IMG/VR virus record: IMGVR_UViG_3300045988_142515 | Location: 1-56,226 of that record | Reading direction: 5' to 3' (one strand) | Length of the DNA stretch: 56,226 bases | DNA from: a virus | Shown: positions 3,947 to 43,876 of the stretch, in pieces | Layout: each line of letters opens with the position of its first letter | Numbering within the stretch: position 1 is the first letter of the stretch | Position numbers and translations under genes: made by a program | The notes under the pieces: model-generated | The model's database searches: none | Told to the model about the DNA's origin: nothing | Seen by the model: only the letters and a program-made list of their open reading frames with translations

Positions 3947-3999
3947 TATTAGAGAATATGTAACTTAGCATACAACCGCGCCATTCCAACGGAAAGTAC

Positions 4000-4135: not shown

Positions 4136-4182
4136 GAGAAACCTGGGAGAACCCTGAGAAACCTGGGAGAACCCTGGGAACC
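4136..4182 (+). repeat. 20-bp tandem repeat (iteron-like) gagaaacctgggagaaccct x2.3
   Basis: Units at 4136-4155 and 4156-4175 plus a partial unit. Related copies at 3856 and 4441 (agaaacctggga). Confidence 0.85.
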
Positions 4183-4665: not shown

Positions 4666-4703
4666 CGGCGCCAGCGCTCCGCTGCGCTCCGCGGCGAGGG
4701 CGC
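4666..4703. other. hairpin H3: GGCGCC/GGCGCC stem carrying the conserved loop cgctccgctgcgctccgc
   Basis: The loop core is identical to the H1 loop (39595..39638) and nearly identical to the H2 loop (39794..39835), but the stem sequence is different. Confidence 0.5.
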
Positions 4704-4984
4704 CTGGGCGATGAGTGCGCAGCGATGTCATACACCCGGCCGCGAGCACTCGCTCCATGGGCCTAAGGCCCTGGCGGAGGCGTGCATGCCAGGGTGCACA
4801 CCGCCTGCGCCTAGGGGCTCCGGCGGGTGCAGCCATGGCATACACGCCCCGGCAGGGGAGGGCTGTGCGGGGCGGCTCACCTCGGGGCGGGGTGTCGATC
4901 GGTCGCTGCGCTCCCTCTCGAACCGCCCCGGGCTCGGGGTGCCCGCTACGCCCTCGGAGGTAGGGCGAGGTCGGGGAGGGCGTC

Positions 4985-5206
4985 TCAGCCGAGGGGGCTG
5001 AACGGGCTGGCAAGGAGGCCTCCCAGACAGAGGGCAGCCCCGAGCAGGGTCGCACACACCAGAGCCAGGAAGAGGATGTCCGGGCCGGTGGGGGAGCCTG
5101 TCAGGCCGCGAGAGGGGTCGGGATGGCGGTAGCCGGGGCAGGCGGGGGGCTGCGAGCCTCCGACGGCCTTGTAACGCCGGTGGCGGGGGCGGTAGGGGGT
5201 AGACAT
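4985..5206 (-). CDS. small membrane protein (73 aa)
   Basis: ATG at 5206 preceded by AAGGAGA plus a 5-nt spacer. C-terminal TM helix ILFLALVCATLLGAALCLGGLLA. In frame with ORF 4985..5647. Confidence 0.55.
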   Translation of the reverse strand: MSTPYRPRHRRYKAVGGSQPPACPGYRHPDPSRGLTGSPTGPDILFLALVCATLLGAALCLGGLLASPFSPLG

Positions 5207-5277
5207 GTCAGGTCTCCTTAAAAGGCTGTGAGGGGCTGTGAGACGGTCGGGAGGACTGTGAGGGCTGAGAGGACGGC

Positions 5278-6093
5278 CTAGCGCCGGACCAGGCCGGTCA
5301 TCGAGCCGTCCTCCTCGAGGACCACGGCGTGGCGGGCGTCGGAGCTGGCGTGGGCCAGGCAGGGCATGGGGGTGTCTGGGGCGGTGGTGCAGCGGGGCAG
5401 GTCGAGAGGGGACGCTGAGGGGTCGTTCTTCGAGTAGGGGGCGCAGGTGTCGGAAGTGACCCAGCCCGGGGCGGGAGCCGAGGCGGGGGCCGGGGAGTGA
5501 GCGGAAGTGATGGGAGAGGGGGTGGTAACGCGCGTTAGCGTGCAACCCTCCGGGGAGGCGGGGGTGGTGGGGTGGGAGGGCGTGGCGGAGGGGTATGGGG
5601 TCCCGGCCTGCTCCGGAGTCGAGGTTCCGGCGCCGGTTCCGCGGCACTCACGCTGGGCCTGATTCCAGTCCTGAGCGGCTAGGGCGTGGCAGTAGGCCCG
5701 AGCGGTGCGGTGGGCGTTGATGGCGGCCACGTTGCAGGCCCCGAGCAGGGCGGCTACGAGGGCGGCGCCGATGGCGAGCTGCATGAGGGAGGGGTGCCAC
5801 CTCATGGAGGGGCGGCGCAGGATGCCGGGGCGGCCCATGTCCTGGAGGGGGGTCTCCTGCTCGGCCTGCTGGGAGGGGGCCTGCTCGGTCGGGCCAGGCC
5901 GGGATGGGGCGGCGAGCGGCAGCTCCTCGGTCGGCGTGCGGTCGCGCCAGCCGGCGAAGGGGGCGGCGTGGCTGGGGTGGGCGGGCCGGCCCGTCGGGTA
6001 GGTGCCCGTCGGGTAGGTGCCCGTCGGGTAGGTGCCCGTCGGGCGGTCGGTGTGCGGGCGGTCGGTGTGCGGGGCGCTGGGGTGGTTGCTCAT
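5278..6093 (-). CDS. membrane-anchored repeat protein (271 aa): HTDRPx2 and TGTYPx3 repeats, one TM helix, Pro/Thr/Ser-rich Cys-containing C-terminal domain
   Basis: Leaderless ATG 6093 lies 6 nt after the -10 of the minus-strand promoter. MSNHPSAPHTDRPHTDRPTGTYPTGTYPTGTYP..., TM helix LMQLAIGAALVAALLGACNVAAI. Confidence 0.6.
   Translation of the reverse strand: MSNHPSAPHTDRPHTDRPTGTYPTGTYPTGTYPTGRPAHPSHAAPFAGWRDRTPTEELPLAAPSRPGPTEQAPSQQAEQETPLQDMGRPGILRRPSMRWHPSLMQLAIGAALVAALLGACNVAAINAHRTARAYCHALAAQDWNQAQRECRGTGAGTSTPEQAGTPYPSATPSHPTTPASPEGCTLTRVTTPSPITSAHSPAPASAPAPGWVTSDTCAPYSKNDPSASPLDLPRCTTAPDTPMPCLAHASSDARHAVVLEEDGSMTGLVRR
5990..6073. repeat. two adjacent in-frame 15-bp tandem arrays (cccgtcgggtaggtg x3.6; cggtcggtgtgcggg x2)
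   Basis: Read directly. They encode the TGTYP and HTDRP pentapeptide repeats of the minus-strand gene. Confidence 0.9.
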
Positions 6094-6099
6094 GCCCCT

Positions 6100-6129
6100 A
6101 CTGTATGACGGCATACGGGGTGGGTGCAA
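6100..6129 (-). promoter_or_regulatory. minus-strand promoter with GTATG-N4-CATAC palindrome; leaderless start at 6093
   Basis: On the minus strand: TTGCAC (6129-6124), 18-nt spacer, TACAGT (6105-6100), then 6 nt to the ATG. Palindrome at 6103-6116. Confidence 0.6.
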
Positions 6130-6400
6130 GTCCGGGACCGAAGGCGGCCGGGCCAGGCCGGGCTCCCTCGTCCTGGGAGGGGTCGAGGCGCTCGCGGGGC
6201 GGCGCCGGCCCCTCGTGAAGCTATGCCTATTTAAACCGCGCGTACGCGGGCGCGCCTGTGGTGGCACGGCCCTCCGGCCGCGGTGTGGGACCTAGGTCCT
6301 ACCAGAGAGGGGCGGGCCGGAGGGGCGGGGTGGCAGGCCGCGAGCGCGAGACGGCCTGCTGTGTACGGTGTACGCGGGGAGGTGGCTTGACCGAGGGGAG

Positions 6401-6475
6401 GTGTGGGGTGGGGTGGAGTGGTGGTGTGGGGTGGGGTGGAGTGGTGGTGTGGGGTGGAGTGGTGTGGTGGAGGGC
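6401..6475 (+). repeat. G-rich 23-bp tandem repeat gtgtggggtggggtggagtggtg x2.7-3 (G-quadruplex-capable)
   Basis: Units at 6401-6423 and 6424-6446 plus a degenerate third unit. Five or more GGGG runs. Confidence 0.85.
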
Positions 6476-6615
6476 GCAGCCCCTTCGTGCTCGGAAAGGG
6501 CACCCCTATGGATAGGCCCCTATACATAGGCATGCACGATGGGGACGAGGCAGGCCGGCCGGCCGCCCTTCGCTCATAGGATCCGCGAGCGCGGGGCCGT
6601 CCACTCATAGGTCTT

Positions 6616-6656
6616 CCTGATGAGGGAGGGGCGATCGATGCCCCTTATCGATCAGG
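6616..6656. other. 41-nt composite hairpin centred on gatcgat
   Basis: cctgat-gagg-gaggggc-gatcgat-gcccctt-atcg-atcagg. Three ATCGAT sites lie within 6633-6715. Confidence 0.5.
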
Positions 6657-6742
6657 CCCGGACCGAGGGGGCGAGCCCGCGCCCATGGGGTTTCCTAATG
6701 TTTACGGAGAGATCGATAGGGAGGGGGTGGGCTTGGCCCCCC

Positions 6743-6748
6743 TATAAT
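6743..6748 (+). promoter_or_regulatory. consensus TATAAT -10 box upstream of the 6792 gene
   Basis: cccctataattcat. No convincing -35 box. Confidence 0.35.
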
Positions 6749-6777
6749 TCATACCAATAACCCACCCTCAACCTTTT

Positions 6778-6791
6778 GTATGGGAGCATAC
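6778..6791. promoter_or_regulatory. GTATG-N4-CATAC palindrome abutting start codon 6792
   Basis: gtatgggagcatac immediately followed by ATG. Confidence 0.45.
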
Positions 6792-7310
6792 ATGTCACCT
6801 TCATCCCCGACCTCGCCGTCTGCGGGGGCCCGCGAGGCGCTCACCGACGCGGCCCTGCTGGCCGTCGACACGGCGCTCACGGTCGGCGCGGCGCTGCGCG
6901 TCACCCGCTTCGCCACTACCGACGTCCTGGGCGGCTGGGCCCTGTCGGACCCCCTGCACCGGCTGGCGAACCGCTTAGAGCCTGCCACCCCTCCCCACCC
7001 GTTCGGCTACCTAGCCCCGCCCTCGGCGCCCCTGCACCGCCTCGTGTCGGCCCTGGACTGCCCGTTCTGCGTCGGCACTCAGGCCGCCCTCGTGATCGGC
7101 GCGGCTCTGGCCGCCACGTCGTCCCGCGCCGTCACCCCTTCCGGCGCCCCTCTCCCCCGCTCGCGACACTCCACCGCCGGCCGCCTCGTCCGAGCGGCCT
7201 GCGCCGCGCTCGGCGCCGCCTACGTCGTGGGCCACGTCTCGCACAGGATCGACTCACTGGCGTCGGCAGCCTCCCAGCCCGCCCCCTACCAGACGAAAGA
7301 CTCGAAGTGA
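6792..7310 (+). CDS. membrane protein, DUF1360-like
   Basis: ALRVTRFATTDVLG and CPFCVGTQAALVIGAAL resemble the DUF1360 pattern as I recall it. ATG 6780 is an alternative start. Confidence 0.5.
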   Translation: MSPSSPTSPSAGAREALTDAALLAVDTALTVGAALRVTRFATTDVLGGWALSDPLHRLANRLEPATPPHPFGYLAPPSAPLHRLVSALDCPFCVGTQAALVIGAALAATSSRAVTPSGAPLPRSRHSTAGRLVRAACAALGAAYVVGHVSHRIDSLASAASQPAPYQTKDSK

Positions 7311-9112
7311 CAGCCTCGCCCACCTCCGCCGCGACCTCAGCCGTCTCTAGCCTCGACGCCTACCGCTCCCGCGCCCTGGCGCGCCGCGGCGTCATCGTCC
7401 AGCAGCCGCCGGCCGCTCCGCCTGCCTCACCTGCACCCCGCACCCTGACCGCCGCGGCCTCACGCCCTGCCGCCTCGGGACGGGGCGCCTCCGGCTCCTC
7501 AGCCACCTCTCCCCGGCGGCAGTCCCCCAGCACCCGCTCGTGGCAGGCAGAGGCGTGGGCGGCCTACGACGAGGTCGGCGAGGAGAGGTTCCTGGCCTCG
7601 ACCCTCGCCGGGCGCCTGAGCCAGGCCCGCCTCTACGTCCAGCACAAACCAGCCACAGGCCCGCGCTCCTCGCTGCGTGACGACGGGATGGACGCGACCG
7701 ACACCGCCCCCTCCCCTACGGCCACCCTCGCTGAGGCGGTCCTGGCGGCCCTCGGTGCGTCCCAGCAGGACCTGGGCCAGATGCTCCAGCGCCTGGCCAC
7801 GAATCTGTTCGTGGCCGGTGAGGGGTGGCTCGTAGGCGTGCCGCGCCACGTTATCGACGAGGTCTCCCCGTCCTCGGCGCCGGCCGTGACCGCGCCTAGC
7901 CCGGATCCGTCGCTGACCGATCTCGTGTGGCGCGTGCTGGCCGTGACCGAGGTCTCCTCGGTCGGCTCCGACGGGCGCACCGTACGGCTGAACCTGGGCA
8001 CCGACGGCTCGGCTCCGGTAGAGGTCGCCTCCAGCGACGTCTACATGGTCCGCGTCTGGCGCCCGCACCCGGCGCGCTACTGGGAGGCTGACTCGCCCAC
8101 GCGGGCCTGTCTGCCGATCCTGCGCGAGCTCATCGGGCTCACCCGCCACATCAGCGCCCAGATCGACTCCCGCCTGGCCGGCGCCGGCATCCTGGTCGTG
8201 CCCTCCTCGGCCTCGGCCGCTCTGGCCTCGGACGCGGCCGACTCCAGTGCCTACGGCGCGCCTGACCCGTTCGTGGCCGCGCTCATGGACTCGATGCTGC
8301 GGCCGATCGAGAACCGGGACGACGCCTCTGCCGTCGTGCCGCTCGTCGTGACCGTGCCGGACGAGGCGGCGGACAAGATGAGCCACCTCACGTTCTCCTC
8401 GGCCCTGGACGCCGGCGCCCGCGACCTGCGCGACGAGGCTATCCGGCGCCTGGCCCTGGCCCAGGACGCGCCGCCGGAGCTCCTACTCGGCTCGGGCGCC
8501 ATGAACCACTGGGGCGCGTGGCTGACGCGTGAGGACACGGTCACCACGCACATCGAGCCGGTCCTGGCCCTCATCTGCGACGCGCTGACCTCCCAGTACC
8601 TTCGTCCGGTCCTGCTCTCGGCGGGCCTATCAGAGGACGAGGTGCGCACGCTCTCCGTCGGCTACGACGTCTCCGCCCTCGTGGCCCGGCCGAACCGCTC
8701 GGAGGAGGCGCTGAACCTCCACCGCGCCGGCGCCGTGTCGGACGAGGCGCTGCGTGAGGCCAGCGGGTTCGACGACTCCGACGCCAAGCCCCTGGACGAG
8801 CGGGCCCTTATGCAGGCCCTGGCCATGGTCACCAAGCGGCCGGACCTGATGGGCACGATCGGCATAGGCCCGCTCACGCAGGAGATCCTCAAGGCCTACG
8901 AGGGAGACTACTCGGCCCCGTCCGAGGCCCTCCGCGCCCTGGCCGTGCCTCCGGCCGCCCCCGACGCCCCCGCTCCTGACCAGGACGGCCCCGGCCGTCC
9001 CCCAAGTGGCGCCGACTCGGCCGAGCCGGGTAGGGTGCCAGGTAGCGAGGCGCCGGTCTCATCCGGCGACGCCCGCCCGGAGTCATCCACCACGGCCCCT
9101 GCTGGGGCCTGA
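7307..9112 (+). CDS. portal protein (601 aa)
   Basis: GTG 7307 overlaps the upstream stop (GTGA). Size and position just before the MuF/protease gene fit a portal. The part of ORF 6776..9112 upstream of 7307 is Arg/Pro-rich junk. Confidence 0.7.
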   Translation: MTASPTSAATSAVSSLDAYRSRALARRGVIVQQPPAAPPASPAPRTLTAAASRPAASGRGASGSSATSPRRQSPSTRSWQAEAWAAYDEVGEERFLASTLAGRLSQARLYVQHKPATGPRSSLRDDGMDATDTAPSPTATLAEAVLAALGASQQDLGQMLQRLATNLFVAGEGWLVGVPRHVIDEVSPSSAPAVTAPSPDPSLTDLVWRVLAVTEVSSVGSDGRTVRLNLGTDGSAPVEVASSDVYMVRVWRPHPARYWEADSPTRACLPILRELIGLTRHISAQIDSRLAGAGILVVPSSASAALASDAADSSAYGAPDPFVAALMDSMLRPIENRDDASAVVPLVVTVPDEAADKMSHLTFSSALDAGARDLRDEAIRRLALAQDAPPELLLGSGAMNHWGAWLTREDTVTTHIEPVLALICDALTSQYLRPVLLSAGLSEDEVRTLSVGYDVSALVARPNRSEEALNLHRAGAVSDEALREASGFDDSDAKPLDERALMQALAMVTKRPDLMGTIGIGPLTQEILKAYEGDYSAPSEALRALAVPPAAPDAPAPDQDGPGRPPSGADSAEPGRVPGSEAPVSSGDARPESSTTAPAGA

Positions 9113-32931: not shown

Positions 32932-35085
32932 TCAGGAGTAGAGCTCCCAAGCGGAGGCGTTCCCTCCCTGGGCCTCAAAGGTGAGGATTGCCGGCTTGGT
33001 GGAGTCCCCTGAGATGTTGGTCCACCAGTCTGAGCCGCGGTCGGCGGAGGGGCAGGAGATGATCCAACGCGAGTCCCCGACCTGGCGGACACCGAAGTTG
33101 TGCCAGTGCCCGTGGACAAGGATCCTGGCGTCGTAGAGGCCGCTACGGCGGCCGAACGCGAGGTCTCTGAACCATCCGGGCACCTTCGACTGTGAGCCTG
33201 CCAGGTGGCCGTGGGTGAAGCCGATGCGGGTCCCGTCCGCGGCGTCCACGGTAACGGCCTCCTCCCACTTCTCGGGACGGTGGAAGGTGACGTGCTCATA
33301 TCCTGGGCGGTCGGCGATGATGTCTTCGATGTTGTGGGAGATCATGATGCCGAAGTCGTCGTCTGGGGCGTTGGCGCGGGAGTTCTTCCCCGTACCGGTG
33401 CGCACCGCGCAGTGGTTGGACGGGACGGCCACGTAGTAGAGGGACTCGCACAGCGGCGCGAGCAGCTGGACGGCCTCGGCGTAGAGGCGTTGGACAGTGC
33501 GAATCTGATCGGTCAGGGACAGGTCGTTGGTCTGGGCCTGGCTGGCGACGTTCCAGAAGCCCTCTGTCGAGTCCCCGACGTCTGCGAGGATGATGCGCTG
33601 ATACGGGGCCGGCTCTGTGAGGTCGTCTGCGATGTCCTTCAGGGCGCGGCGCACGAGCCGGACCGTGTCCTCCGTGCCGCCACCACTTCCACAGTTGTGC
33701 GTGAGTGTCAGTTCCCGGCCAGCCAGATACTCCCCACCCTCGACGGTGATGCACTGAGCCATGCCCCGGCCCGCAGGAACCACGTCGATCACGGACAGGC
33801 GATGGTCCCGCCTCTCTGTAGACGGCCGCTGATTGGCGGCCTTGCGAGGGAGTCGGAACATCGGCCGGTCTGCTCGGAACTGAATGCGCCAGTGTTGCTT
33901 GCACTGGGCATCGCCGTAGTGTCCGATAGCCGTAGTTACCTTGGGGGTTACTCCCTCCAAGTGGAGGAGGGTGAGGACGCCGTCGATGATGTTCTTGTTG
34001 GTGTTGCTAAACTCGATGGCGCCTGACCTAGGGTTGCAGTAGCCGTCGGAGTCCATGAGGCCCTGGAGGAGTGCGAGGCGCTGCTCAGACGAGGCTTGCA
34101 GATACGCCTCGGGGATGTGCTTGTTGTCCTTCAGTCCCGCCAGTCGAAGATCCCGGGTTAGGCCGTCTACGACGACGGTGCCCAGGCCCTCCCGGGACTT
34201 GATCTCGTGCCCAAGGGCGAGCAGGTGGTCACGATCCACGGCTCCCTTGGTGATACGCCCGCCCGAGGCTCGCCCGTCCCCCAGCCAGAACCCCAGGATG
34301 TAGGGGTCGATGGGGAGGCTGGCCTCGGGCAGCTCGATCGGGCTATGCGCCCACACCTTGAAGGGCCGCATCCTACCGGCCCGCATTCGGGTGATCTTCA
34401 TGATCTCCTCAGTCGTGAGAGTCATCTCACGGTCCTCCCACCGGGACGTGTCTCCCTCAGGGTGCATGCGGCGACGGCCGCTCCATAGGTGGCCTGAGGT
34501 AGCCCGCAGCGCTCGCCCCTCGGGGAAGGTGACGTCGAAGAGGTCCTGCTCGGTCGAGCCGGTCACTGCAAGGATGCGCTTCGGCTTACCGTCCCGGCCA
34601 TAGACGTGCATGCCCGGGCGGAGGTCCCCGTGGCGCTTCCAGCCGTCGGTCGTCAGGACCGGGGTTGAGTCTTCAAGAGCTTTGCCTACCTGAAAGTCCG
34701 CCAGGCAGACCACCGGCGTCGACTCGATCGGGCCGGACGGGCTGGTCGCCCTAGGCAGGAGAGGCTCGCGAAAGACGGGCTCCAAGTCCTCGTAGGAGAG
34801 GCGCTTAGCCTCCTCCATCTCAACGGCTCCGGGGCGGTACTCGATCTTCTCGTACGAGCCGTCGGCGAGGCGGACGGTCTTGCCGCGCTTCGTGATGGCA
34901 CCTACGGGGAGGTCGAAGAACGCGTCGCGGTCGAACTCATCCCGGCCCTTGCGTTTCAGGGCGCGCCTATGCCGGCGCACGGTCGCCTCGGAGGTGTTGA
35001 ACTCCTCGGCCAGGTCGACGTTCGTCTTGCGCTCTCGCTCGGGGAGCTCGTCGTTGGCGATGATCGCCTCGTCCAGCGGACTCAT
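32932..35085 (-). CDS. HTH-domain calcineurin-like metallophosphoesterase precursor interrupted by an intein (717 aa)
   Basis: N-terminal HTH NVDLAEEFNTSEATVRRHRRAL. MPP motifs LADFQVGK | ILADVGDSTE, VPSNHC, FTHGH, LVHGHWH. RBS aggagaccc. Confidence 0.8.
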   Translation of the reverse strand: MSPLDEAIIANDELPERERKTNVDLAEEFNTSEATVRRHRRALKRKGRDEFDRDAFFDLPVGAITKRGKTVRLADGSYEKIEYRPGAVEMEEAKRLSYEDLEPVFREPLLPRATSPSGPIESTPVVCLADFQVGKALEDSTPVLTTDGWKRHGDLRPGMHVYGRDGKPKRILAVTGSTEQDLFDVTFPEGRALRATSGHLWSGRRRMHPEGDTSRWEDREMTLTTEEIMKITRMRAGRMRPFKVWAHSPIELPEASLPIDPYILGFWLGDGRASGGRITKGAVDRDHLLALGHEIKSREGLGTVVVDGLTRDLRLAGLKDNKHIPEAYLQASSEQRLALLQGLMDSDGYCNPRSGAIEFSNTNKNIIDGVLTLLHLEGVTPKVTTAIGHYGDAQCKQHWRIQFRADRPMFRLPRKAANQRPSTERRDHRLSVIDVVPAGRGMAQCITVEGGEYLAGRELTLTHNCGSGGGTEDTVRLVRRALKDIADDLTEPAPYQRIILADVGDSTEGFWNVASQAQTNDLSLTDQIRTVQRLYAEAVQLLAPLCESLYYVAVPSNHCAVRTGTGKNSRANAPDDDFGIMISHNIEDIIADRPGYEHVTFHRPEKWEEAVTVDAADGTRIGFTHGHLAGSQSKVPGWFRDLAFGRRSGLYDARILVHGHWHNFGVRQVGDSRWIISCPSADRGSDWWTNISGDSTKPAILTFEAQGGNASAWELYS
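33694..34680 (-). mobile_element. intein (329 aa, residues A136-N464) with a LAGLIDADG homing endonuclease; class-3-like signature
   Basis: Starts ALEDSTPVLTTDGW (Ala1). Block B TSGHLW (Trp at B:12). LAGLIDADG motifs LGFWLGDGRA and LLQGLMDSDGY. Block F AQCITVE. Ends LTLTHN followed by C+1. Confidence 0.8.
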
Positions 35086-36176: not shown

Positions 36177-38270
36177 ATGAGCATCATGGACCTGGAGAAG
36201 GTAGTTAGCATGGCCAGGAAGGCCGCCCAGGGCTCACACACGCCCTGCGGCCCAATCACGTGGGTCTGGGGTAAGGAGGACCTAAAGGCCCTCGTCAAGG
36301 CCATTCACGCCTCACAGAAGGTCGTCATGGACCTGGAGACCACCGGCCTGGACGAGTATGCGGAGGCCGGCGGGGACACCAACGGCGGCTACCCGGCCCG
36401 TATCGTCCTGGCCTCCCTGACCCTGCCAAATGCCGAGCGCGCCGCGGCGGGCGCCTACAACTGGCGCACCTTCGACGGCGAGCAGCCGATGACCTACCTC
36501 GTACCCCTCTCGCACCCGGCCTCGCCCTTGATCGGAGTGTGGCGGAAGGTCATGGCGATCATCGGCCGCGAGATTAACCGCAGCGGAAAGCCCTTCGTCA
36601 ACGCGAACATCAAGTTCGACGCCCGCTGGGTCTTCGCCCAGGCCGGCGTGGACCTGTCCGATCGTATCGAGTGGGACACGACCGTCTCGTCCCAGCTGGT
36701 CGACACCGAGGCCCGCACCCGCCTCAAGATCCGCGCCGCTCGCGACTTCGGGATCGAGGAGTGGGACGACTTCGACCTCAGCACACCCGGCGCCGCCGAG
36801 CGCGTGGACCTGATCCAGCTGGGCGAGTACGCGGCGCGTGACACCTACTACACCTGGAAGATCGAGGAGGAGCACCGCGACCAGATGTTCCTCACCGGCG
36901 ACGAGGAGCCCTCCGACTCAGACGACATCCAGATGGCCCGGCTCGGCAAGGTCGCCACCTACGTAGCCATGCCTACTGTGAAGACTCTCACAAAGGTCGA
37001 GCAGCGGGGCTTCCTGCTCGACGTGGACTGGGTCCACGCCAAGATCGAGGAGATGGACGCGCTGCGCCTAAAGGCCTGCGAGGACATCCTCGGCCTGTAC
37101 GGCACCGCCCCCGCGCCGGCGCCAGCGAAGGACGGCGTCACTACCGCCGCGACGTCGAAGTGGTTCCAGGGCTTCGTGGCCCAGGCCATCGAGGCTGGCG
37201 ACCTGCGCGTGACGGCCCGCACGGACTCCGGCAACGCCCAGTGGAACAAGGCGGTCCTCATCGCCCAGCAGCGTCAGGGCAGCCCGGCCGCCGACGCCCT
37301 GCTCCGCCACCGCGACGCGACGAAGACGCTGGAGTTCCTCCGCTCGTGGCTGGAGCTGCGTGACCCTAACAACGTGATCCACGCCACCTACAACGTGGGA
37401 TTTGTCCGCACGGGAAGATTAAGTTCGAGCAGCCCGAACGTCCAGCAGATATCGGCCAGGCTCAAGCCCGCCTTTATCCCGCGGCCCGGGCACGTCCTGC
37501 TCGACCTCGACTACAGCCAGGTCGAGCTGCGGGTGGCGGCGTTCATCTCCCGCTCGCAGCCGATGATCGAGGCCTTCCAGCGGGGTGATGATCTTCACAG
37601 GCTCCTAGCCGCGAAGATCGCCGGCAAGGCTCCAGCGGACGTCACCAGCCTGGAGCGCAAGAGGGCGAAGGCCGGCAACTTCGGCCTCCTCTACGGAATG
37701 AGCCCCGGCGGCTTCCAGTCCTACGCCGCCACCGCCTATGACGTTTCTCTCACTTTGGCCGAGGCGCAGGCCGTCCACAGCGCCTTCTTCGAGATGTGGG
37801 ACGGCATGCGCCAGTGGCACGAGCGCGCCAAGCGCCGGGCCTACGAGCGCGGTTATGTGACGTCCCCCATAGGCCGCACGCAGTGGCTCAGCGACCTGTA
37901 CTCGAAGAGCTCGTTCAAGTCGTCCCACGCCGAGCGCAACGCCCTGAACAGCCCCGTGCAGGGCTTCGGCTCGGACCTCATGCAGATGGCGGCGGCCTCG
38001 ATCATGGGCACGCTGCCCGGCTACCCGCTTCCCCGGGTCGAGGGGGCGCACGTCGTGGCCACCGTCCACGATGAGATCTGCATCGAGGTGCCCGAGGACC
38101 GCTGGCAAGAGATCCTGATCGAGTGCAAGCGCCGCATGGAGGACGTCAACACCTTCCTCCGCCCGCTCGACTGCCAGATGGACGTCCCCATCGTGGCAGG
38201 CCCCTCGGCCGGGACCCGCTGGGGCGTGCACGACCTGCACGATGAGGACGACCCGCTCCCCACGCCCTGA
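36177..38270 (+). CDS. polA: DNA polymerase I (family A, with 3'-5' exonuclease domain, no 5' nuclease domain)
   Basis: Exo I VMDLETTGLD. Motif A LLDLDYSQVELRV. Motif B RKRAKAGNFGLLYGMS. Motif C VATVHDEI. Confidence 0.9.
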   Translation: MSIMDLEKVVSMARKAAQGSHTPCGPITWVWGKEDLKALVKAIHASQKVVMDLETTGLDEYAEAGGDTNGGYPARIVLASLTLPNAERAAAGAYNWRTFDGEQPMTYLVPLSHPASPLIGVWRKVMAIIGREINRSGKPFVNANIKFDARWVFAQAGVDLSDRIEWDTTVSSQLVDTEARTRLKIRAARDFGIEEWDDFDLSTPGAAERVDLIQLGEYAARDTYYTWKIEEEHRDQMFLTGDEEPSDSDDIQMARLGKVATYVAMPTVKTLTKVEQRGFLLDVDWVHAKIEEMDALRLKACEDILGLYGTAPAPAPAKDGVTTAATSKWFQGFVAQAIEAGDLRVTARTDSGNAQWNKAVLIAQQRQGSPAADALLRHRDATKTLEFLRSWLELRDPNNVIHATYNVGFVRTGRLSSSSPNVQQISARLKPAFIPRPGHVLLDLDYSQVELRVAAFISRSQPMIEAFQRGDDLHRLLAAKIAGKAPADVTSLERKRAKAGNFGLLYGMSPGGFQSYAATAYDVSLTLAEAQAVHSAFFEMWDGMRQWHERAKRRAYERGYVTSPIGRTQWLSDLYSKSSFKSSHAERNALNSPVQGFGSDLMQMAAASIMGTLPGYPLPRVEGAHVVATVHDEICIEVPEDRWQEILIECKRRMEDVNTFLRPLDCQMDVPIVAGPSAGTRWGVHDLHDEDDPLPTP

Positions 38271-38289
38271 GGTGACCGTCCTCACCCAA

Positions 38290-38384
38290 CTGAGACTTGC
38301 GTCTCAAATCCTCAAAACCGGGAATACGTTGAAAACGCTGGGAAATCTGCCTATTCCCGTAGTCACTTGAGACCCGCACCACAC
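38290..38384 (+). repeat. ~95-bp direct repeat R1 (TGAGAC-ttgc-GTCTCA hairpin plus GGGAATA...TATTCCC inverted repeat)
   Basis: Aligned by eye with R2 at roughly 70% identity, 156-bp period. Confidence 0.75.
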
Positions 38385-38445
38385 TTAAGGAGCCGCCCGC
38401 GCAACGCGGCCACTCCCCGCCCTCCCGGTGACCATCCCCACCCCG

Positions 38446-38540
38446 CTGAGACTTGCGTCTCACTTTCAGAAAACGGGAATACGCCTGGAAACACTGGAAA
38501 AGGTCCGTATTCCCAAATCCCTCAGAGACCTGTATCACAC
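38446..38540 (+). repeat. ~95-bp direct repeat R2
   Basis: ctgagacttgcgtctca...gggaatacg-N22-cgtattccc...ctcagagacc. A partial third copy (ccgtattcccaaatc) lies at 39312-39330. Confidence 0.75.
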
Positions 38541-38565
38541 CCCAAACAACGCCTAGGAGGCACCC

Positions 38566-39057
38566 ATGCGCAACGCGCTTCGCACCTACCCCGCCCGCAA
38601 GGCCACGATCCAGGGCCGCCCCGCCGTCCAGGTCCGGGACACGAGGAACGAGATCGAGTACTGGGTCGAGATCACTGACGAGCCGGACTCCGGCGGCCGC
38701 TACCACGTCGTAAACCTCCTGTGCCGCCCAGATACGGGCGTTCGCTTCCCCGACAGTGTCCCCCACAGGACCCTCTGTGAAATCGCCGCAAACGTGCTTG
38801 AGAGGGCCGAGAAGCCCGCACGAGGGGGCAACGCCTACCGCGGCGCGCCTGTCGAGACGCTGCGCAAGCTGATCGAGGAGGGCAAGACCCGCACCGACAT
38901 CGCCAAGGAGCTGGGTCGAAGCATCTACACCGTGGACTCCTGGCTGCGCAGGGCCCGCCGCATCGACCCCGAGTTCCCGGGCACGATGACGAAGAGCGGG
39001 ACACGTCGCCCGGCTCGTAACAAGACCCCCTACGCGAGGGCGCCGAAGGACGCCTGA
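38566..39057 (+). CDS. HTH DNA-binding protein (163 aa)
   Basis: RBS ctaggagg. C-terminal HTH RTDIAKELGRSIYTVDSWLRRAR. Confidence 0.65.
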   Translation: MRNALRTYPARKATIQGRPAVQVRDTRNEIEYWVEITDEPDSGGRYHVVNLLCRPDTGVRFPDSVPHRTLCEIAANVLERAEKPARGGNAYRGAPVETLRKLIEEGKTRTDIAKELGRSIYTVDSWLRRARRIDPEFPGTMTKSGTRRPARNKTPYARAPKDA

Positions 39058-39067
39058 GCCCCTGACC

Positions 39068-39100
39068 GAAGGGCCCCAGCCTTCGCGGCTGGGGCCCTTT
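39068..39100 (+). terminator. intrinsic terminator
   Basis: gaagggccccagcc ttcgc ggctggggccctt, followed by ttg. Confidence 0.75.
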
Positions 39101-39240
39101 TGCGTGCCCTGAATCACTCCCTCAGGCCTCTGTCCATATGCTGAGACAGTTGTCCGCATAGCGGGAAAGTGACCCAAGACACGCCTGATTTGCCCTTCCG
39201 CAGCCCCCCATCTCACATTCTGGACACATGTATGCTGGTC

Positions 39241-39254
39241 GTATGGCGTCATAC
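39241..39254. promoter_or_regulatory. GTATG-N4-CATAC palindrome
   Basis: gtatggcgtcatac. No supported gene lies next to it. Confidence 0.4.
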
Positions 39255-39434
39255 GGTTTGTCCCGCAAAGTTTGCACTTTTGCGCTATTGCTGGGATCCG
39301 TCGGCGTGTCGGACCGTATTCCCAAATCGGTCTGTGAGGAATATCCCACTTTTAAAGGCCTATTCCGTGAACAACTTCACCGTTTTGCTCTTGCATTTGG
39401 CCCCGGAATTTGCCATCATGCGCGCCCGCGCGCG

Positions 39435-39519
39435 CCCACACACACTCGCGCCCCCGTGTCTCCTCCCCCTGACGGAGTCAGGGGGGGAGGAGACACAGGG
39501 GGCGCTCGTGTTGTGTGGG
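39435..39519. repeat. 85-nt imperfect inverted repeat (about 39-43-nt arms, 3-nt centre) followed by an AT-rich tract at 39521-39547
   Basis: cccacacacactcgcgcccccgtgtctcctccccctgac gga gtcagggggggaggagacacagggggcgctcgtgttgtgtggg, then aatatatgtgtatatatga. Confidence 0.8.
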
Positions 39520-39594
39520 TAGTGGAATATATGTGTATATATGAGCCAGGTCACATCCGTTGCCGAGTCCGTTTCCGTACCCGTTGCCGGTTCC

Positions 39595-39638
39595 GACCGA
39601 CCCCCTCGCTCCGCTGCGCTCCGCTTCGGGGGTCGGTC
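39595..39638. other. hairpin H1: 11-bp stem gaccgaccccc/gggggtcggtc, loop tcgctccgctgcgctccgcttc
   Basis: Read directly. The loop is shared with H2 and H3. Confidence 0.6.
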
Positions 39639-39793
39639 ATTGAACCCCGGTCCGATTCGTGCCCGTCGCCAGCGCCGGGGGACCTTCACCCGCCCGGTGT
39701 CCCCGCGAAGGGCGCTGCGGCGCTGGGGCGCCGGTCGCCCCGCGGGTCCTCGGGCGTTTTCGGTCCCAGGCGGAGAGGCTTTCCTCGGGTCGC

Positions 39794-39835
39794 CGTGTCG
39801 AGACTCGCTCCGCTGCGCTGCGCTCGGTCGACACG
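39794..39835. other. hairpin H2: 8-bp stem cgtgtcga/tcgacacg, loop gactcgctccgctgcgctgcgctcgg
   Basis: Read directly. Same loop core on a different stem. Confidence 0.6.
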
Positions 39836-39939
39836 CCCGCCCCTCGGGCCTCTCGGCGACCTCGAGCTCCGGAGGCGGTCCACCTCGCGCCTGCCCCTCG
39901 TGCCCCTTCGTGCACCTTCGTGCTGGGGAGAGGGCCGCA

Positions 39940-40052
39940 CATGCCCCTCAGAGGCCGTGAGAGCGCTTCTGACGGACTTTTACCCCGCCCCCGCACTCCC
40001 GGAGGGGTCCGGCCCCAAAAGGCGCTCAGAATGGCTTACACGGCTTCTGAGG
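39940..40052 (+). repeat. 113-nt conserved non-coding element, copy B
   Basis: Same three blocks at the same offsets as 3428..3540. Block 3 forms ctcagaa-[tggcttacacggc]-ttctgag. Confidence 0.7.
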
Positions 40053-40978
40053 AATCTAGACGCCGGCTCTGGGGGCGTAACCGCACCTTCGTTCCGGGGA
40101 GGGGCGCGCCGCCCGCCCGGCGAATGTGACGACACTCACGACACGAGACGGCCCTCCCGATTTGCATTCGCTCCCGGGATGGGGTTTAATAAACCCATCA
40201 CCGCCGAGGGAGCGAAACTCTCCGGACCGGCCGCCGCAATCCAGCGGCGGGCCCCCGGCCCGCCCTGAGGAACTAACCCGAGGCGATGAGATACCCGGTA
40301 AGCCGGGAGGCTTTGCGAGTACGCGATGGCCTGGACGGACGGGGCAACCTCGATGAAAGCTGGTCGAGGCCTCCAAGACAAGTCGACCACCGCTATAAGG
40401 CCCGCAGGGCCCGGATAACTGGATCTGCTAATCGCCTTTAAGGCGGAGGATGGAATGGACCTCAGTGTTCCCCCTCACACCAAACCTGGCTCGTAGTCGG
40501 GGAGGGGGGCCGCTGGCTGACGAGTCTCCGTGATCCCGTCGGGCGTAGAGCTCGGGTTGAGAGCCCGGACGGCTCCCGGTAAACCTGCACCGTCGAGTGA
40601 CAGGGTGACGGGCCGGACGGATACTTGAAGCGGGTCTCGCGGCACGATTGCCTGGTCCCGAGACGTGAGGAGAAGCTGCCCGCAAGGGTTCCTCGCTGAA
40701 ACGCTTCCTCGAGAGACCTTAATCAAACGACCCGATAGACCCTCTCATCGCTGCTGTTTGGAGAAGTCGAGACGGGAGACTAGGGACTGCTCGAGCGACG
40801 TGAACCGCCGCTTCCGGATCGGTGAGGTATGACAGCGAGCCCTCCGGCGACGAATGCGGGAATCTGAGACATGTGATTCGCCCGAGCGCCTCGTCAACGC
40901 TCCATGAGCCTTCGTAAAGAATGGACTTCCACGCCGTGGGATGCGGCAACCGCCCGGCCACCTCGGCCCTCAGAGCCC

Positions 40979-41022
40979 TTGAGGTTCTAATACCCTTCGG
41001 GTAGTGTATGCGGGGCATACAC
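40979..41022 (+). promoter_or_regulatory. promoter (TTGAGG, 17-nt spacer, TAGTGT) overlapped by the GTGTATG-N5-CATACAC palindrome
   Basis: -35 at 40979-40984, -10 at 41002-41007, palindrome at 41004-41022. RBS agaggaga precedes ATG 41040. Confidence 0.55.
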
Positions 41023-41039
41023 CCGACAGAGGAGATGAC

Positions 41040-41384
41040 ATGCCCCGCCCCAGCAAGGACAAGCTTGTCCCGTACGTAGATGACCGCCCAGATCTTGACC
41101 AACGGTTCTCGCCGTTGGATGCCCCCACATCGATCGACTTCGGCCGGAAGCCGGGCAACCCTTCAGGCCCACGCAAGTCAGTTACCTTCACGATGAGGGA
41201 GGCTACCTGGGAGAGAGTCATCCGCCGGGCAGAGCGTCAGGGCCTGCAGCCCAGGATCGTCCTAGCGCGCCTCATGGAGGCGTACGGGAATCGCGAGCTC
41301 GATCTGGCTCCACACCCTTCGGGGATCAAGGTGACCACACATCGGACCACCTTCACCAATCCAGACAACCCCTCGAACCGGTGA
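41040..41384 (+). CDS. ribbon-helix-helix DNA-binding protein (114 aa)
   Basis: RKSVTFTMREATWERVIRRAERQGLQPRIVLARLMEAY fits the beta-alpha-alpha RHH pattern. ATG 41040 inside ORF 41004..41384. Confidence 0.6.
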   Translation: MPRPSKDKLVPYVDDRPDLDQRFSPLDAPTSIDFGRKPGNPSGPRKSVTFTMREATWERVIRRAERQGLQPRIVLARLMEAYGNRELDLAPHPSGIKVTTHRTTFTNPDNPSNR

Positions 41385-41404
41385 CCGGCTGACTACCGGT
41401 CACC
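41380..41404 (+). other. 9-bp hairpin overlapping the stop codon, followed by ggttt
   Basis: ggtgaccgg ctgacta ccggtcacc. Confidence 0.4.
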
Positions 41405-41446
41405 GGTTTAGGGCATCTACCCACCCCACCCAGCAACCCAGGACCC

Positions 41447-43876
41447 ATGAGCACCACTGAACAGCACAACGCGGCCGTCGTAGAGGCCGCGCTCGACGCG
41501 TACCGCAGGGGGCTGACACCCCTGCCCATCCCTCGCCACTCCAAGAGCCCGACCATGGCCGGCTGGACTAAGGTCCGCTGGCCAGACCCCGAGACCGACA
41601 CCGGCGAGGGGGAGGCTGCCGTAAGGCAGGCCTTCGAGGAGTACACGGCCGGGGGATCCACCAACCTCGGCGTCCTCCTCGGCGAGGCGTCGGGAGACCT
41701 CATCGACGTCGACCTCGACCACCCGGCCGCGCAGCGGCTGAAGTCGTACCTGCTGCCGTACACGGCCGCGGTCCACGGCCGCGAGACGTCGCGCAGGTCG
41801 CACTACTGGTACCGCGCCAAGCCCGGCACGCTTCCGCCAACGCGCCGCCTCAAGATCCCGGACGTGTCTGGGAGGGGCTCCGGAGTGTCGGTAGAGATCC
41901 GCACTACCGGCTCCCAGACTCTCGTGCCCCCCTCGATCCATCCCGCCACGGCCGAGACCTACGAGTGGGAGGGAGAGCCCTGGGGCGGTGACGAGGGCCC
42001 CGCCGTCGTTGACGGCACCGAGCTGTTGGCTCAGGTCACTCTCCTCGGGCTGTGCGCCGTCCTGCTGGACGCCTGGCCCGGCCCCGGCCAGCGCCACGAT
42101 GCCTACGTCGCCCTCGCCGGCGGTCTCCTTCGTTATGGGGACTCACAGACCGTGCACCCGTTCTGGGAGCGGAACGCCGGCCTTGTTATCCGCACCCTCG
42201 CCCAGGCCACTCACGACGAGGACGGCGCCGAGCAGCGCGAGCGTGAGGCGATCTACACTACGAAGCGCCGCCTCCGGGAGGGCGGGGAGGCGACCGGCTT
42301 CACCCGCCTGGCCGAGTACATAGGGGAGGAGAGCGTGAAGATCGTCGAGCGCCTCGTCCGAGACGCCGAGGCCGTGGCCGGCTTCGTGCCGGACGTGGCT
42401 GGCGACGTACCCGGCTGGCAGCCTCCGTGGGCGCGTCAGTGGGACGGCCTGGAGATCGAGCTCGATGAGTCGGCCCCGGCGCCGGCCTTCGTTGACGGTG
42501 ACGACTTCTCCGAGCCCCGCTCCCTCGGCGAGCTGGGGCCGGCCCTCGGGCAGCCTAAAGAAGGCGACAACTCTCCGGATAGTCCGGATAGTCTCGGCCC
42601 AGATGAGGGCACTGACGACGTTCCCGAGGACCTGGATCCGCTCGACGCCCGACCCTCGTCCTGGAGCCCCGTCGACCTGGAGCCCTACCTGACCGGAAAG
42701 CTCAAGGTCCCGGACCCGGAGGTCTGCCGCCGCAACGACGGCGCCTGCCTCATGTACCGGGGGCGCGTGAACATGCTGTTCGGCTCCTCGGAGTCGGCCA
42801 AGTCGTGGATCGCCATGGCGATCTGCCTCCAGGAGATAGAGGGCGGCGGCCGCGCTCTTTACTTGGATTTTGAGGATGAGCCTGTACAAACCTTGAACCG
42901 TCTCCGCCTCCTGGGAGCCGTGGACGATGACCTTCGGGCACAGTTCTCCTACATCCGCCCTGAAGGGCCCTTGGCCGACATGCAGCGCAACAAGTGGGGC
43001 AAGGACCAGCCAACCAAGTCCGGCGAGTTCGCTCAGGACCAGTTCGACACGGCGCTCCAGTCTCTTGACCCGGACATCATTGTGGCCGACGGTATGACCG
43101 CTCTCTACGGATTGCACGGCCTGGACGCGAACGACGCCGTAAGTACCGACGTCATCACGTCGTGGCTGAAGCGCCTCACGCGCAACGGCCGCTCGACCGT
43201 CATCATCATCGACCACCAGGCCAAGAGCGCCGAGAAGGGCTCCATGCCGATCGGCTCGCAGCACAAGGTCGCCATGGTGCAGGGAACCCTGCTCCAGGTG
43301 TGGCCTATCAAACAGCCTATGCCCGGCGATGTCGGCGAGATGGAGCTGGTCGTTCTGAAGGACCGGCCCGGCCAGGTCCGTGCACACTCCCAGAAGACCG
43401 GAGGTCGCGGCAAGGCTCAGGTGGCCGGCGTCGTCACGCTCGACAGCCGCACCGAGGGGCGCTCATCCCTCGTCATCACTCCCCCGCGCCGCACACCCTC
43501 AGGAGGGGGCGGCACTCTGAACGCGGATGGCGAGGACGTGAACGATGTCGAGCGCCGCGTGGAGCTGGACTTCACCGACATGTCTAAGGTGATGGAGAAG
43601 ATGGCACAGCGCCAGGACGATGAGGACACCGTCATCGGAGCGTTCCGAGGCGAGATCGGCGCCGAGCTGAACTCGCGAGATCTGTACGACCTTGTGGACG
43701 ATGACCTCCCCCGCTCGAGGACCAAGTCGGCCCTTGGCCGCCTGATCTCGCGGGGCTGGATCATGTCCGCCGGGGATCGCGGCGGCCACAGGTACACACT
43801 GATCGCCGTAGGCGAGGACGGTCTCGAGGAGCGGGTCCTGGACGAGAGCAGTAACGGGAACGGAGGTGAGGGCTGA
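41447..43876 (+). CDS. bifunctional primase-polymerase (PrimPol) / RepA-DnaB-like helicase (809 aa)
   Basis: N-terminal region GLTPLPIPRHSKSPTMAGW, LIDVDLDH, VEIRTTGSQTLVPPSIHP. C-terminal P-loop-like GSSESAKSW and IIIDHQAKS. Confidence 0.8.
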   Translation: MSTTEQHNAAVVEAALDAYRRGLTPLPIPRHSKSPTMAGWTKVRWPDPETDTGEGEAAVRQAFEEYTAGGSTNLGVLLGEASGDLIDVDLDHPAAQRLKSYLLPYTAAVHGRETSRRSHYWYRAKPGTLPPTRRLKIPDVSGRGSGVSVEIRTTGSQTLVPPSIHPATAETYEWEGEPWGGDEGPAVVDGTELLAQVTLLGLCAVLLDAWPGPGQRHDAYVALAGGLLRYGDSQTVHPFWERNAGLVIRTLAQATHDEDGAEQREREAIYTTKRRLREGGEATGFTRLAEYIGEESVKIVERLVRDAEAVAGFVPDVAGDVPGWQPPWARQWDGLEIELDESAPAPAFVDGDDFSEPRSLGELGPALGQPKEGDNSPDSPDSLGPDEGTDDVPEDLDPLDARPSSWSPVDLEPYLTGKLKVPDPEVCRRNDGACLMYRGRVNMLFGSSESAKSWIAMAICLQEIEGGGRALYLDFEDEPVQTLNRLRLLGAVDDDLRAQFSYIRPEGPLADMQRNKWGKDQPTKSGEFAQDQFDTALQSLDPDIIVADGMTALYGLHGLDANDAVSTDVITSWLKRLTRNGRSTVIIIDHQAKSAEKGSMPIGSQHKVAMVQGTLLQVWPIKQPMPGDVGEMELVVLKDRPGQVRAHSQKTGGRGKAQVAGVVTLDSRTEGRSSLVITPPRRTPSGGGGTLNADGEDVNDVERRVELDFTDMSKVMEKMAQRQDDEDTVIGAFRGEIGAELNSRDLYDLVDDDLPRSRTKSALGRLISRGWIMSAGDRGGHRYTLIAVGEDGLEERVLDESSNGNGGEG

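Follow-up and report, generated by a model that had tools for sequence, protein, structure and literature searches.

A conserved non-coding tract with compensated base pairing in the replication module of an uncultured lineage of oral phages

ColE1 RNA II, the T4 origins ori(uvsY) and ori(34), and the primary origins of T7 are transcription-primed or R-loop origins, and the ori/crr of phage P4 is one of the iteron origins that are served by a primase-helicase. Single-strand origins (sso), 150-300 nt in length, are found in rolling-circle replicons. The ori of Ceduovirus c2 is non-coding and lies between the promoters PE1 and PE2, and both the length and the structure of the PE1-T transcript matter (PMC7150918). 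GOLLD, ROOL, and OLE are large 'ornate' RNAs of bacteria and phages (PMC12286853), and sso are treated for rolling-circle plasmids and integrative and conjugative elements in PMC4595007. The present study concerns positions 39058-41039 of a 56.2-kb tailed-phage genome of 65% GC that was recovered from a metagenome (IMG/VR record IMGVR_UViG_3300045988_142515; the window hereafter is this whole stretch of 56,226 nt). The tract sits within the replication module, between the genes for DNA polymerase A (PolA) and a small helix-turn-helix (HTH) protein on one side and those for a protein called ribbon-helix-helix (RHH) and a primase-helicase on the other, and the + strand is the strand of all adjoining genes. 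The locus is truly non-coding, and selection has maintained it in one uncultured oral-phage lineage, probably phages of Actinomyces.

The tract resembles the c2 ori in several respects: it is non-coding, has no open reading frame (ORF) or ribosome-binding site of its own, and lies at the head of early or replication genes, between two co-oriented promoter-like elements, which are here motif-level predictions. Just as several sequence types of the c2 ori exist among relatives (PMC7150918), the tract occurs as mosaic haplotypes in which pairing is kept. It differs from the c2 ori in being about three times longer and of 64% GC rather than AT-rich, in belonging to a phage that encodes its own PolA and Prim-Pol/helicase, and in that its origin activity is a prediction; the two are not expected to be related in sequence. 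A promoter followed within ~100 nt by G-runs and an AT-rich tract, and a folded transcript (predicted here), would be held in common with ColE1, T4, and T7, and a need for a family-A polymerase is plausible, given the neighbouring PolA gene; those elements, however, span 0.1-0.6 kb, and nothing in the tract can be pointed to as an RNase H or processing site. Like GOLLD, ROOL, and OLE, the tract is phage-borne, runs to several hundred to more than 1000 nt, and combines covarying helices with conserved unpaired nucleotides. Unlike them, it has no match to an Rfam family at E<=5 and no adjoining tRNA genes (an ARAGORN scan of the whole window for tRNA and tmRNA genes returned none), is largely a chain of long hairpins and not a compact multi-junction fold, and starts with origin-like DNA repeats. 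Two separate non-coding regions with common motifs, repeats beside an AT tract, and a nearby gene for a multidomain primase-helicase recall P4 ori/crr, but the common motifs lie here in hairpin loops or rods and on one strand only, and it is mostly pairing that is conserved, not double-stranded sequence. Orientation-specific, imperfect palindromes with conserved loop motifs and compensated pairing are shared with the sso, from which the tract is set apart by its ~1.4 kb of paired sequence and by a phage with PolA, primase-helicase, and terminase; no Rep of the rolling-circle kind was found among the module proteins examined, and Rep elsewhere was not searched for exhaustively.

An earlier note on this DNA, written from the letters alone, had described the tract as a gene desert of about 2 kb with no credible ORF, and as very unusual for a tightly packed phage genome. 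The tract is non-coding. Across 39000-41000, the spread of GC content between codon phases was at most 0.19 and mostly below 0.1, compared with 0.35-0.59 in the PolA and primase genes, and among 25 close relatives the commonest codon phase held 34-44% of the substitutions across 39008-41032, compared with 49-82% in the HTH, RHH, and primase genes. The GC content of third codon positions (GC3) of the three ORFs weighed in the note was 0.72, 0.66, and 0.56, in good agreement with its hand counts of ~73%, 64%, and 57%; genuine genes had values of 0.75-0.91, and the GC3 of the candidates (0.56-0.72) was not above their own GC1 or GC2. Indels between close relatives are not multiples of 3 and break the reading frames. 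The size of the gap is as exceptional as the note had supposed, with only two runs of more than 0.7 kb without coding signal in the window (38911-41070 and 3271-5370), and the corresponding gaps of a more distant clade of relatives (the far clade) likewise lack a codon-phase signal. The GC-frame check that the note had proposed thus gave no coding signal, and no conserved protein-coding gene, which it had named as the finding that would undo its reading, was detected from the substitution pattern or by BLASTP: the 346-aa ORF at 39228-40268 showed no protein similarity (E=0.46) to the 239-aa coding sequence (CDS) that is annotated at the same place in Dulem virus 38, while the DNA underneath is 65% identical over 1 kb. 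The term 'gene desert' therefore stood as far as genes are concerned, but the tract is not featureless, as ~330 nt at its 5' end form a variable regulatory region and its last 60 nt a putative RHH promoter/operator.

In the record of Dulem virus 38 (PP511596.1, locus L001), six CDS labelled 'hypothetical protein' are annotated in the homologous gap (5812-7717); the largest is not a conserved protein by the tests used, and probably none of the six is a real gene. Far-clade loci show a weak GC-phase bump, which was considered as a sign of coding and was rejected, as it reflects a conserved nucleotide block whose differences do not lie at third positions. The ORFs at this bump were rejected as genes, since the far-clade loci L035 and L041 share no such ORFs.

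Searches returned 57 related loci from IMG/VR and at least 44 further ones from ENA metagenomes, the cluster of the primase by itself counts 48 members, and the locus is kept in more than 90 metagenomic genomes, while Dulem virus 38, from lemur saliva, was the only relative among deposited phage genomes. The earlier note had also allowed for the region being absent or unconserved in close relatives; instead, the gap was found at the same HTH-RHH position in 34 of the 34 relatives that carry both flanks. It measures 1.8-2.0 kb in the close clade, whose primases are ~90% identical, and 2.27-2.55 kb in the far clade, whose primases are ~70% identical. Among cultured phages, Microbacterium phages of the genus Rogerhendrixvirus come closest, with a primase identity of 45-48%; their polymerase gene, two small genes, and primase gene follow one another as they do here, with a spacer of less than 0.2 kb, i.e. 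without the gap, and the block was therefore gained in the oral-phage lineage and has been kept since. Mean identity was 67% in the 5' 330 nt, 81-89% in 39391-40345, 66% in 40346-40905, and 90% in the last 65 nt; the core domains, at 84-89%, thus match the flanking genes (HTH 86.5%, 5' end of the primase gene 85.5%).

With regard to the host, the primase of the window has the same sequence as DAV70960.1 ('MAG TPA: Caudoviricetes sp.'), an incomplete copy of that protein is filed under Actinomyces sp., and the host is probably this mouth bacterium. A search of 185,579 reference genomes with the primase, aimed at a prophage or host, found nothing. One related contig (L214, BNJU01004934.1) of 131,672 bp, more than twice the phage genome length, carries the motif of sub-domain R1 described below; it may be chimeric or a concatemer, or it may be host DNA with an integrated prophage, and it could give away the host or the phage's way of life.

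Several dozen helices over ~1.5 kb (~39430-40900) have been kept by compensatory substitution. RNAalifold predicted 523 pairs on a 36-sequence alignment (A1), which were scored against controls with shuffled partners (500 shuffles) and with partners slid by 1-3 columns. Paired cells amounted to 90.9%, compared with 86.7±0.1% in the shuffles and 37-44% after sliding; 164 pairs had changed on both sides (shuffles 97±5, slid 80-94), and 742 cells were compensatory (shuffles 275±15, slid 141-192). On each of five measures, the observed value lay beyond all 500 shuffles, though related sequences can exceed shuffles without any structure. The compensatory changes argue for selection on pairing, and the note's description of a tract full of stable helices and palindromes was borne out against both controls. 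In the far clade, BLAST aligned only the base of the 5' palindrome and a rod-like hairpin termed Element X, yet the same succession of elements folds there. The assemblies of three relatives break down at the 5' palindrome, into poly-C/poly-G (L006 and L018) or Ns (L029), probably because so stable a hairpin upsets sequencing or assembly, and these rows are to be removed from the structure alignments.

The strand was assessed from transition-type covarying pairs (C-G and U-A, or G-C and A-U) that were predicted on both strands, by counting the intermediates between the two states. G·U exceeded A·C by 95 cells to 21 in 35 sequences (A1 minus L024) and by 115 to 19 in 60 distinct sequences, in which 15 pairs favoured G·U and 3 favoured A·C (one-sided sign test, ~0.004), with the caveat that G·T is tolerated in DNA hairpins too. 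The signal came mostly from 40340-40900 and the 5' hairpin, and the terminator hairpin upstream of the tract, where G:T exceeds A:C, served as a positive control. Total alignment-folding energy was rejected as an indicator of strand (-897 vs -900), and so were opportunistic G·U/A·C pairs at helix ends, which were equally common in + and - predictions. Because of the wobble bias, the promoter-like element on the + strand, the confinement of CGCTN runs to the + strand, and the orientation of the neighbouring genes, the locus is likely to encode a functional structured RNA on the + strand. The note had offered a replication origin, a large structured non-coding RNA, or both, and it is the RNA part of this proposal that gained from the compensatory changes, the wobble bias, and the upstream promoter-like element.

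A search against Rfam 15, also suggested in the note, gave no match at the gathering score in the whole window and six related loci; the families covered include GOLLD, ROOL, OLE, HEARO, raiA, group I/II introns, RNase P, tmRNA, 6S, and riboswitches. At E<=5, only sub-threshold models of microRNA hairpins matched within 38200-41500, on the 5' palindrome and on both strands.

Table 1. Predicted and conserved features of the non-coding tract and its borders, in positions of the window.
Feature	Position	Strand	Description
Intrinsic terminator of the PolA-HTH operon	39069-39101	+	13-14 bp GC-rich stem, 5-nt loop, TTTT
Variable 5' spacer	39102-39310	+	Conserved block 39105-39180, then two alternative cassettes (~39180-39300) by relative
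Operator-like repeats	39315-39367	.	CGTATTCCC (39315), inverted GAGGAATA (39336-39343), CTATTCCG (39360)
Sigma-70-like promoter candidate	39391-39419	+	TTGCAT, 17 nt, CATCAT; predicted start ~39426
GC-rich palindrome/hairpin (5' hairpin)	39435-39519	+	85 nt, ~40 bp stem; preceded by alternating (GC)n
AT-rich alternating tract, possible DNA-unwinding element	39520-39546	.	TAGTGGAATATATGTGTATATATGAG
Three 12-nt direct repeats, iteron-like	39555-39589	+	CCGTTKCCGNNN; Tandem Repeats Finder
Hairpin H1	39589-39646	+	11-bp stem, 6 covarying pairs; loop of four CGCTN pentamers (39607-39626)
Multi-branch domain	39661-39867	+	Long arm 39673-39772, hairpin H3 39787-39843
Variable 10-nt tandem repeat	39892-39923	+	TGCCCCTTCG x3.3; poorly conserved spacer, 0.5-0.6 with gaps
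Element X, rod-like hairpin of ~115 nt	39946-40055	+	27-30-nt inverted arms around an inner hairpin
Sub-domain R1	40176-40345	+	Covarying helices alternate with invariant unpaired GCGAAAC, GGAACUAACCC, GAGAUACC
3' domain	40346-40905	+	66% identity, several haplotypes; helices kept via C-G / U-G / U-A series
RHH-primase promoter candidate	40979-41007	+	TTGAGG (40979-84), 17 nt, TAGTGT (41002-07)
Perfect 8+8 palindrome, likely operator (predicted function)	41004-41022	+	GTGTATGC-GGG-GCATACAC
Shine-Dalgarno AGGAG	41030-34	+	Precedes the RHH ATG at 41040

The folded domains are listed in Table 1. The stem of H1 reads GACCGACCCCC/GGGGGTCGGTC in the window, GACCCGAGCCC/GGGCTCGGGTC in other relatives, and GACCGAGGGGC/GCCCCTCGGTC in Dulem virus, with an unchanged loop; in L017 and L048 this loop is shorter by 10 nt (two pentamers). 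Helices 21-27, which make up the multi-branch domain, were 94-98% paired with 16 covarying pairs, at a mean DNA identity of 88.6% that equals that of the coding flanks. The long arm of this domain has an invariant tip (GGCGCTGCGGCGCTGGGGCGCC, 39710-39741), and its haplotypes differ at eight positions, all eight of which are compensated, while the loop of H3 again consists of four CGCTN pentamers (39806-39825). Runs of at least three CGCTN units occur in the genome only at 4675, 39607, and 39806, always on the + strand and between inverted arms. As a probe for IMG/VR the loop motif was dropped, as it is too low in complexity and gave more than 118 mostly unrelated matches.

Element X has the arms CTCAGAGGCCGTGWRAGCG.TTCTGA / TCAGAA.GGCTTACACGGCTTCTGAG, and its consensus fold, drawn from both clades and a paralogue, comprises 38 pairs that are 87% paired, with covariation in 11 of them. 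It is flanked by 27-nt direct repeats (GCACCTTCGTKC.GGGGAG.GG.CGC at 39912-39938 and 40083-40109, 81% identical), each of which opens with a small GCAC-CUUC-GUGC hairpin, and it can alternatively be folded into two local hairpins, the first followed by UUUU, or into one long rod. A recently mobile miniature element was considered and rejected because the position of Element X is fixed in both clades, and a promoter was rejected for want of an acceptable -10 at the right spacing. In IMG/VR, the element is confined to this phage family, the matches outside it (L182 and L185) being unrelated sequences, and its pattern was absent from 185,579 reference genomes, in which there were 7 chance matches in unrelated taxa.

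Further downstream, the fold of R1 (alignment A2) has 39 pairs, 13 of them covarying, at a mean identity of 86.4%, and a covariance model of R1 found the syntenic domain in the far-clade loci L040 (E=2e-6) and L041 (E=0.002), with a weak match in the L035 group (E 0.2-0.5). The kept helices of the 3' domain are numbers 52, 64, 66, 70, 71, 73, 76, 79, and 80 of the consensus fold, and 10 of the 13 pairs between 40547-40563 and 40624-40638 covary. A long-range pairing of 39540-39551 with 40484-40495 was rejected, as ~10 relatives have a different 5' partner and the 3' partner never changes to compensate.

The 5' part of the tract (39391-39589) reads as a putative origin by its anatomy, namely a promoter candidate, a palindrome, an AT tract, and repeats within a replication module. 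In the promoter candidate, TTGCAW and a spacing of 17-18 nt are kept in the close clade, Dulem virus, and the far clade while the surrounding sequence diverges; its -10 varies as TAnnnn (TATCAT, TAACCT, TATCCC, TATCCG, TAATCG, TACTCG). An alternating-GC run and the palindrome come ~15 nt past the -10, and the sequence of the palindrome's base (CCCACACAC..TCGCGCCCCC / GGGGGCGCTCGTGTGTGGG) is conserved in all clades, the middle growing and shrinking symmetrically; its T:G pairs fall on the + strand. In the AT-rich tract that follows, 39526-39555 ranks in the window as one of the five 30-mers with the least GC, and the AT-richness is kept in the far clade, where a hexamer unit in 3-6 copies takes the place of the 12-nt repeats. 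At least three direct repeats beside an AT tract and near an initiator gene, as in iteron origins, are thus present in anatomical terms, with the Prim-Pol/AAA_25 gene 1.9 kb downstream. GC skew was -0.08 at 39501-40000, and a long R-loop is not favoured because the + strand downstream is not G-rich. The consensus promoter scan also returned a promoter-like GTGACC-17 nt-TATATT on the minus strand (39526-39554), facing the palindrome and convergent with the candidate at 39391-39419.

The borders of the tract carry regulatory features. The clean terminator that the note had placed at 39068-39100 was confirmed by sequence, scan, and covariation: it lies just past a stop codon, 39069-39081 pairs with 39087-39099, it is the only terminator-like site in a scan of 38000-41600, and of its 14 pairs 6 have two-sided changes among the relatives, with 98.8% of cells paired. 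Conservation in the 5' spacer ranges from 0.48 to 0.8, and in the operator-like repeats behind it from 0.81 to 0.87 (motif count 1 vs 0.02 expected). The same GGGAATACG/CGTATTCCC inverted pairs stand 5' of the HTH gene at 38320/38350 and 38475/38506. The TATTCC/GGAATA repeats of 39315-39367 and 38270-38566 are probably operators for one regulator, and their occurrence both in the HTH control region and in the promoter region of the putative RNA would suggest common regulation of the two. The HTH control region (38270-38566) contains two direct repeats of ~156 nt, each of which holds CTGAGACTTGCGTCTCA and the inverted pair GGGAATACG ... C(G/C)TATTCCC. At the 3' border, the promoter that the note had proposed at 40979 lies in a stretch (40979-41039) that is 91-95% conserved and contains helices 85-87 of the consensus fold; the promoter itself is only a consensus-like match.

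A second non-coding block of 1.5 kb without codon-phase GC signal is located at 3430-4984. It is 75-84% conserved in 7 relatives, and the fold of an 8-sequence alignment showed 74 covarying pairs. It contains Element X-like copies (the paralogue at 3430-3545 and a partial one at ~3700-3760), a CGCTN-loop hairpin at 4675, and an AT-rich tract at ~3900-4100 that no other in the genome exceeds in length and that has GAGAAMCCTGG-type repeats on its flanks (3856-3880, 4135-4180, and 4439-4456). The motifs that the note had seen in both blocks exceeded expectation: CGCTCCGCTGCGCTSCGC had 4 matches (one overlapping, with 3 mismatches) vs 0.8 expected and TCAGARKGGCTTACACGGC had 4 vs 0.05, while GAGCGYTTCTGACGGACTTT was present in 2 copies; all motifs common to the blocks are on the + strand.

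As an explanation, I tentatively favour, at somewhat less than even confidence, a structured non-coding transcript that is coupled to replication-origin function or to the control of replication. RNA polymerase would start at the promoter candidate, near 39426, and produce a long, heavily folded non-coding RNA made up of the 5' hairpin, the CGCUN-loop hairpins, the rod-like Element X, and a 3' domain of invariant single strands and covarying helices. This transcript would open or prime an origin, or organise replication proteins in cis, in the manner of a transcription-coupled origin. A link to replication is suggested by the position of the unit between PolA and the primase-helicase, by its origin-like start, and by the two co-oriented promoter candidates that bracket it, and an origin-linked transcript was ranked first because of its transcription-activated-origin anatomy, the gene context, and the c2-type precedent, to which ColE1 RNA II and the T4 and T7 origins may be added. 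In keeping with a long transcript, a scan of 39102-41039 found no terminator-like site.

Several points weigh against this explanation. The promoter at 39391-39419 is a motif only, its -10 in the window is a weak CATCAT, and the consensus promoter scan did not report it; no 3' end can be defined; and the cumulative GC skew has no turn at 39.4 kb, which leaves an origin there unsupported. Known origins need at most 0.5 kb, and an origin role thus does not explain 1.5 kb of conserved pairing; to my knowledge, the locus is larger than any known origin transcript. The structure was predicted on the same alignment that was used to score it. Many of the compensatory differences in 39595-39860 come from just 2-3 haplotypes and thus represent few independent events, and the helices there have no wobble intermediates and many G-C to C-G swaps, so that the strand assignment and the case for RNA over DNA concern the rest of the tract. 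One relative, L049 (IMGVR_UViG_3300045988_143493), lacks ~200 nt (39606-39805) from the CGCTN loop of H1 to that of H3, apparently through recombination between the CGCTN repeats, which would make the sub-domain dispensable, or through misassembly. The second non-coding block may itself be the true origin, as its long AT tract and GAGAAMCCTGG repeats allow, or a sister RNA locus.

The main rival, in itself somewhat unlikely, is that the tract encodes a free-standing, trans-acting 'ornate' RNA in the sense of GOLLD and ROOL, whose place in the replication module is incidental. Such an RNA, as a single molecule or as several cut at the rods, could assemble into a particle of complex tertiary or multimeric structure, or its repeated CGCUN loops could sequester a host factor. 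The processing of T7 early mRNA provides an analogy here, by which RNase III could cut at the two long rods, the 5' hairpin and Element X. The large size and the many covarying helices fit such an RNA, as do the invariant unpaired segments among the covarying stems of R1, the deep conservation, and the duplication of modules, also with covariation, in the second block, and GOLLD, ROOL, and OLE are precedents for its size (PMC12286853). The failure to match any Rfam family even at a permissive E-value and the lack of a terminator of its own argue against it, and so does the 5' third, which resembles a DNA-level element with its copy-variable repeats and AT tract; the 3' domain, moreover, is weakly conserved in sequence (66%), and within the far clade the L035 group differs in its 3' part.

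An origin-coupled transcript also has to be set against a very long structured 5' leader of the RHH-primase operon that acts by attenuation, antitermination, processing, or protein binding. This is improbable: the tract has the orientation of the operon, no terminator-like site precedes the RHH gene, the operator-like repeats upstream recur in the HTH control region, and the two-way folding of Element X would be the anatomy of a switch, but RHH has its own conserved promoter-like element and operator palindrome (40979-41022), and copies of Element X and of the CGCTN hairpin lie in the other block and not upstream of RHH-primase genes. A leader of 1.6 kb would also be far longer than any known to me.

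A DNA-only element is slightly more improbable. Pairing would then take place in single-stranded or cruciform DNA, as initiation sites, hairpins for the Prim-Pol/helicase, or palindromes for proteins, and the RNA would be functionless. GCT is the recognition triplet of T4 primase, and repeated GCT appears in the loops of a locus that lies next to the primase gene; the helices of 39595-39860 are strictly Watson-Crick on both strands and often exchange G-C for C-G, the stem of the 5' palindrome has kept its sequence from one clade to another, and alternating GC, CA, and AT tracts are present. The + strand G·U bias in 40340-40900 and the conserved upstream promoter nevertheless fit an RNA better, and I know of no precedent for a single-strand DNA structure of 1.4 kb.

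That the tract is a functionless, decaying remnant of genes or of an inserted mobile element is very improbable: the block is specific to the lineage and missing from the Microbacterium phages, its 5' spacer is mosaic, and the inverted arms and flanking direct repeats of Element X resemble a miniature transposable element, but it has kept its place in two clades whose primases are only ~70% identical, the identity of its core equals that of the coding flanks, and the compensatory changes mean selection on pairing. Missed protein-coding genes (e.g. 39228-40268, 39541-39960, or 40719-41102 on the minus strand) are scarcely credible in spite of long ORFs in several frames and the six CDS of Dulem virus 38, given the lack of codon-position GC bias, of 3-base substitution periodicity, and of ORF similarity to that virus, and the frame-breaking indels.

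In the neighbourhood of the tract, PolA is encoded at 36177-38270 and the HTH protein, which has a sigma-70 region-4-like motif, at 38566-39057. The first gene downstream encodes the protein of 114 aa that was called RHH in the note and has no Pfam match, and it is followed by the primase-helicase (Prim-Pol + AAA_25, 41447-43876), a SNF2 helicase, a PD-(D/E)XK nuclease, and an AAA_24 protein. Directly before the primase gene, the RHH stop codon is overlapped by a perfect 13-bp inverted repeat (AACCGGTGACCGG N7 CCGGTCACCGGTT, 41376-41408), which could be a terminator, attenuator, or operator. On the minus strand, opposite to its neighbours, a 717-aa ORF (32932-35085) has a LAGLIDADG_3 homing-endonuclease-like domain at residues 334-386; its homologue in Dulem virus is annotated as 'polymerase/primase', and the product may be an intein-containing or endonuclease-fused replication protein.

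Large phage-borne structured RNAs and transcription-linked origins are already known; what is new at this locus is that no described RNA family matches it. It is possible, though doubtful, that it represents an undescribed class of very large modular RNA (at least 1.4 kb) that acts as RNA and does more than mark a DNA origin, be it as a scaffold or decoy for a phage or host protein or as a component of the replication machinery; its modules, Element X and the CGCUN-loop hairpins, would be those that recur in the second block. I know of few RNAs of this size with a comparatively supported fold outside ribosomal RNA, and GOLLD, ROOL, and OLE each gave a new RNA architecture; the locus offers an alignment of 60 sequences for structural work. 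Annotation pipelines, in turn, fill the tract with spurious 'hypothetical proteins', as in the record of Dulem virus 38. For the phages themselves, whose genomes are tightly packed, keeping 1.5-2.5 kb of non-coding, paired sequence is a real cost. If the locus does give rise to a modular RNA class, structured RNA would take up ~6% of the phage genome in the two loci together, and if its RNA fires an origin, transcription-primed replication would extend, in an unusually elaborate form, to high-GC actinophages with their own PolA and Prim-Pol/helicase.

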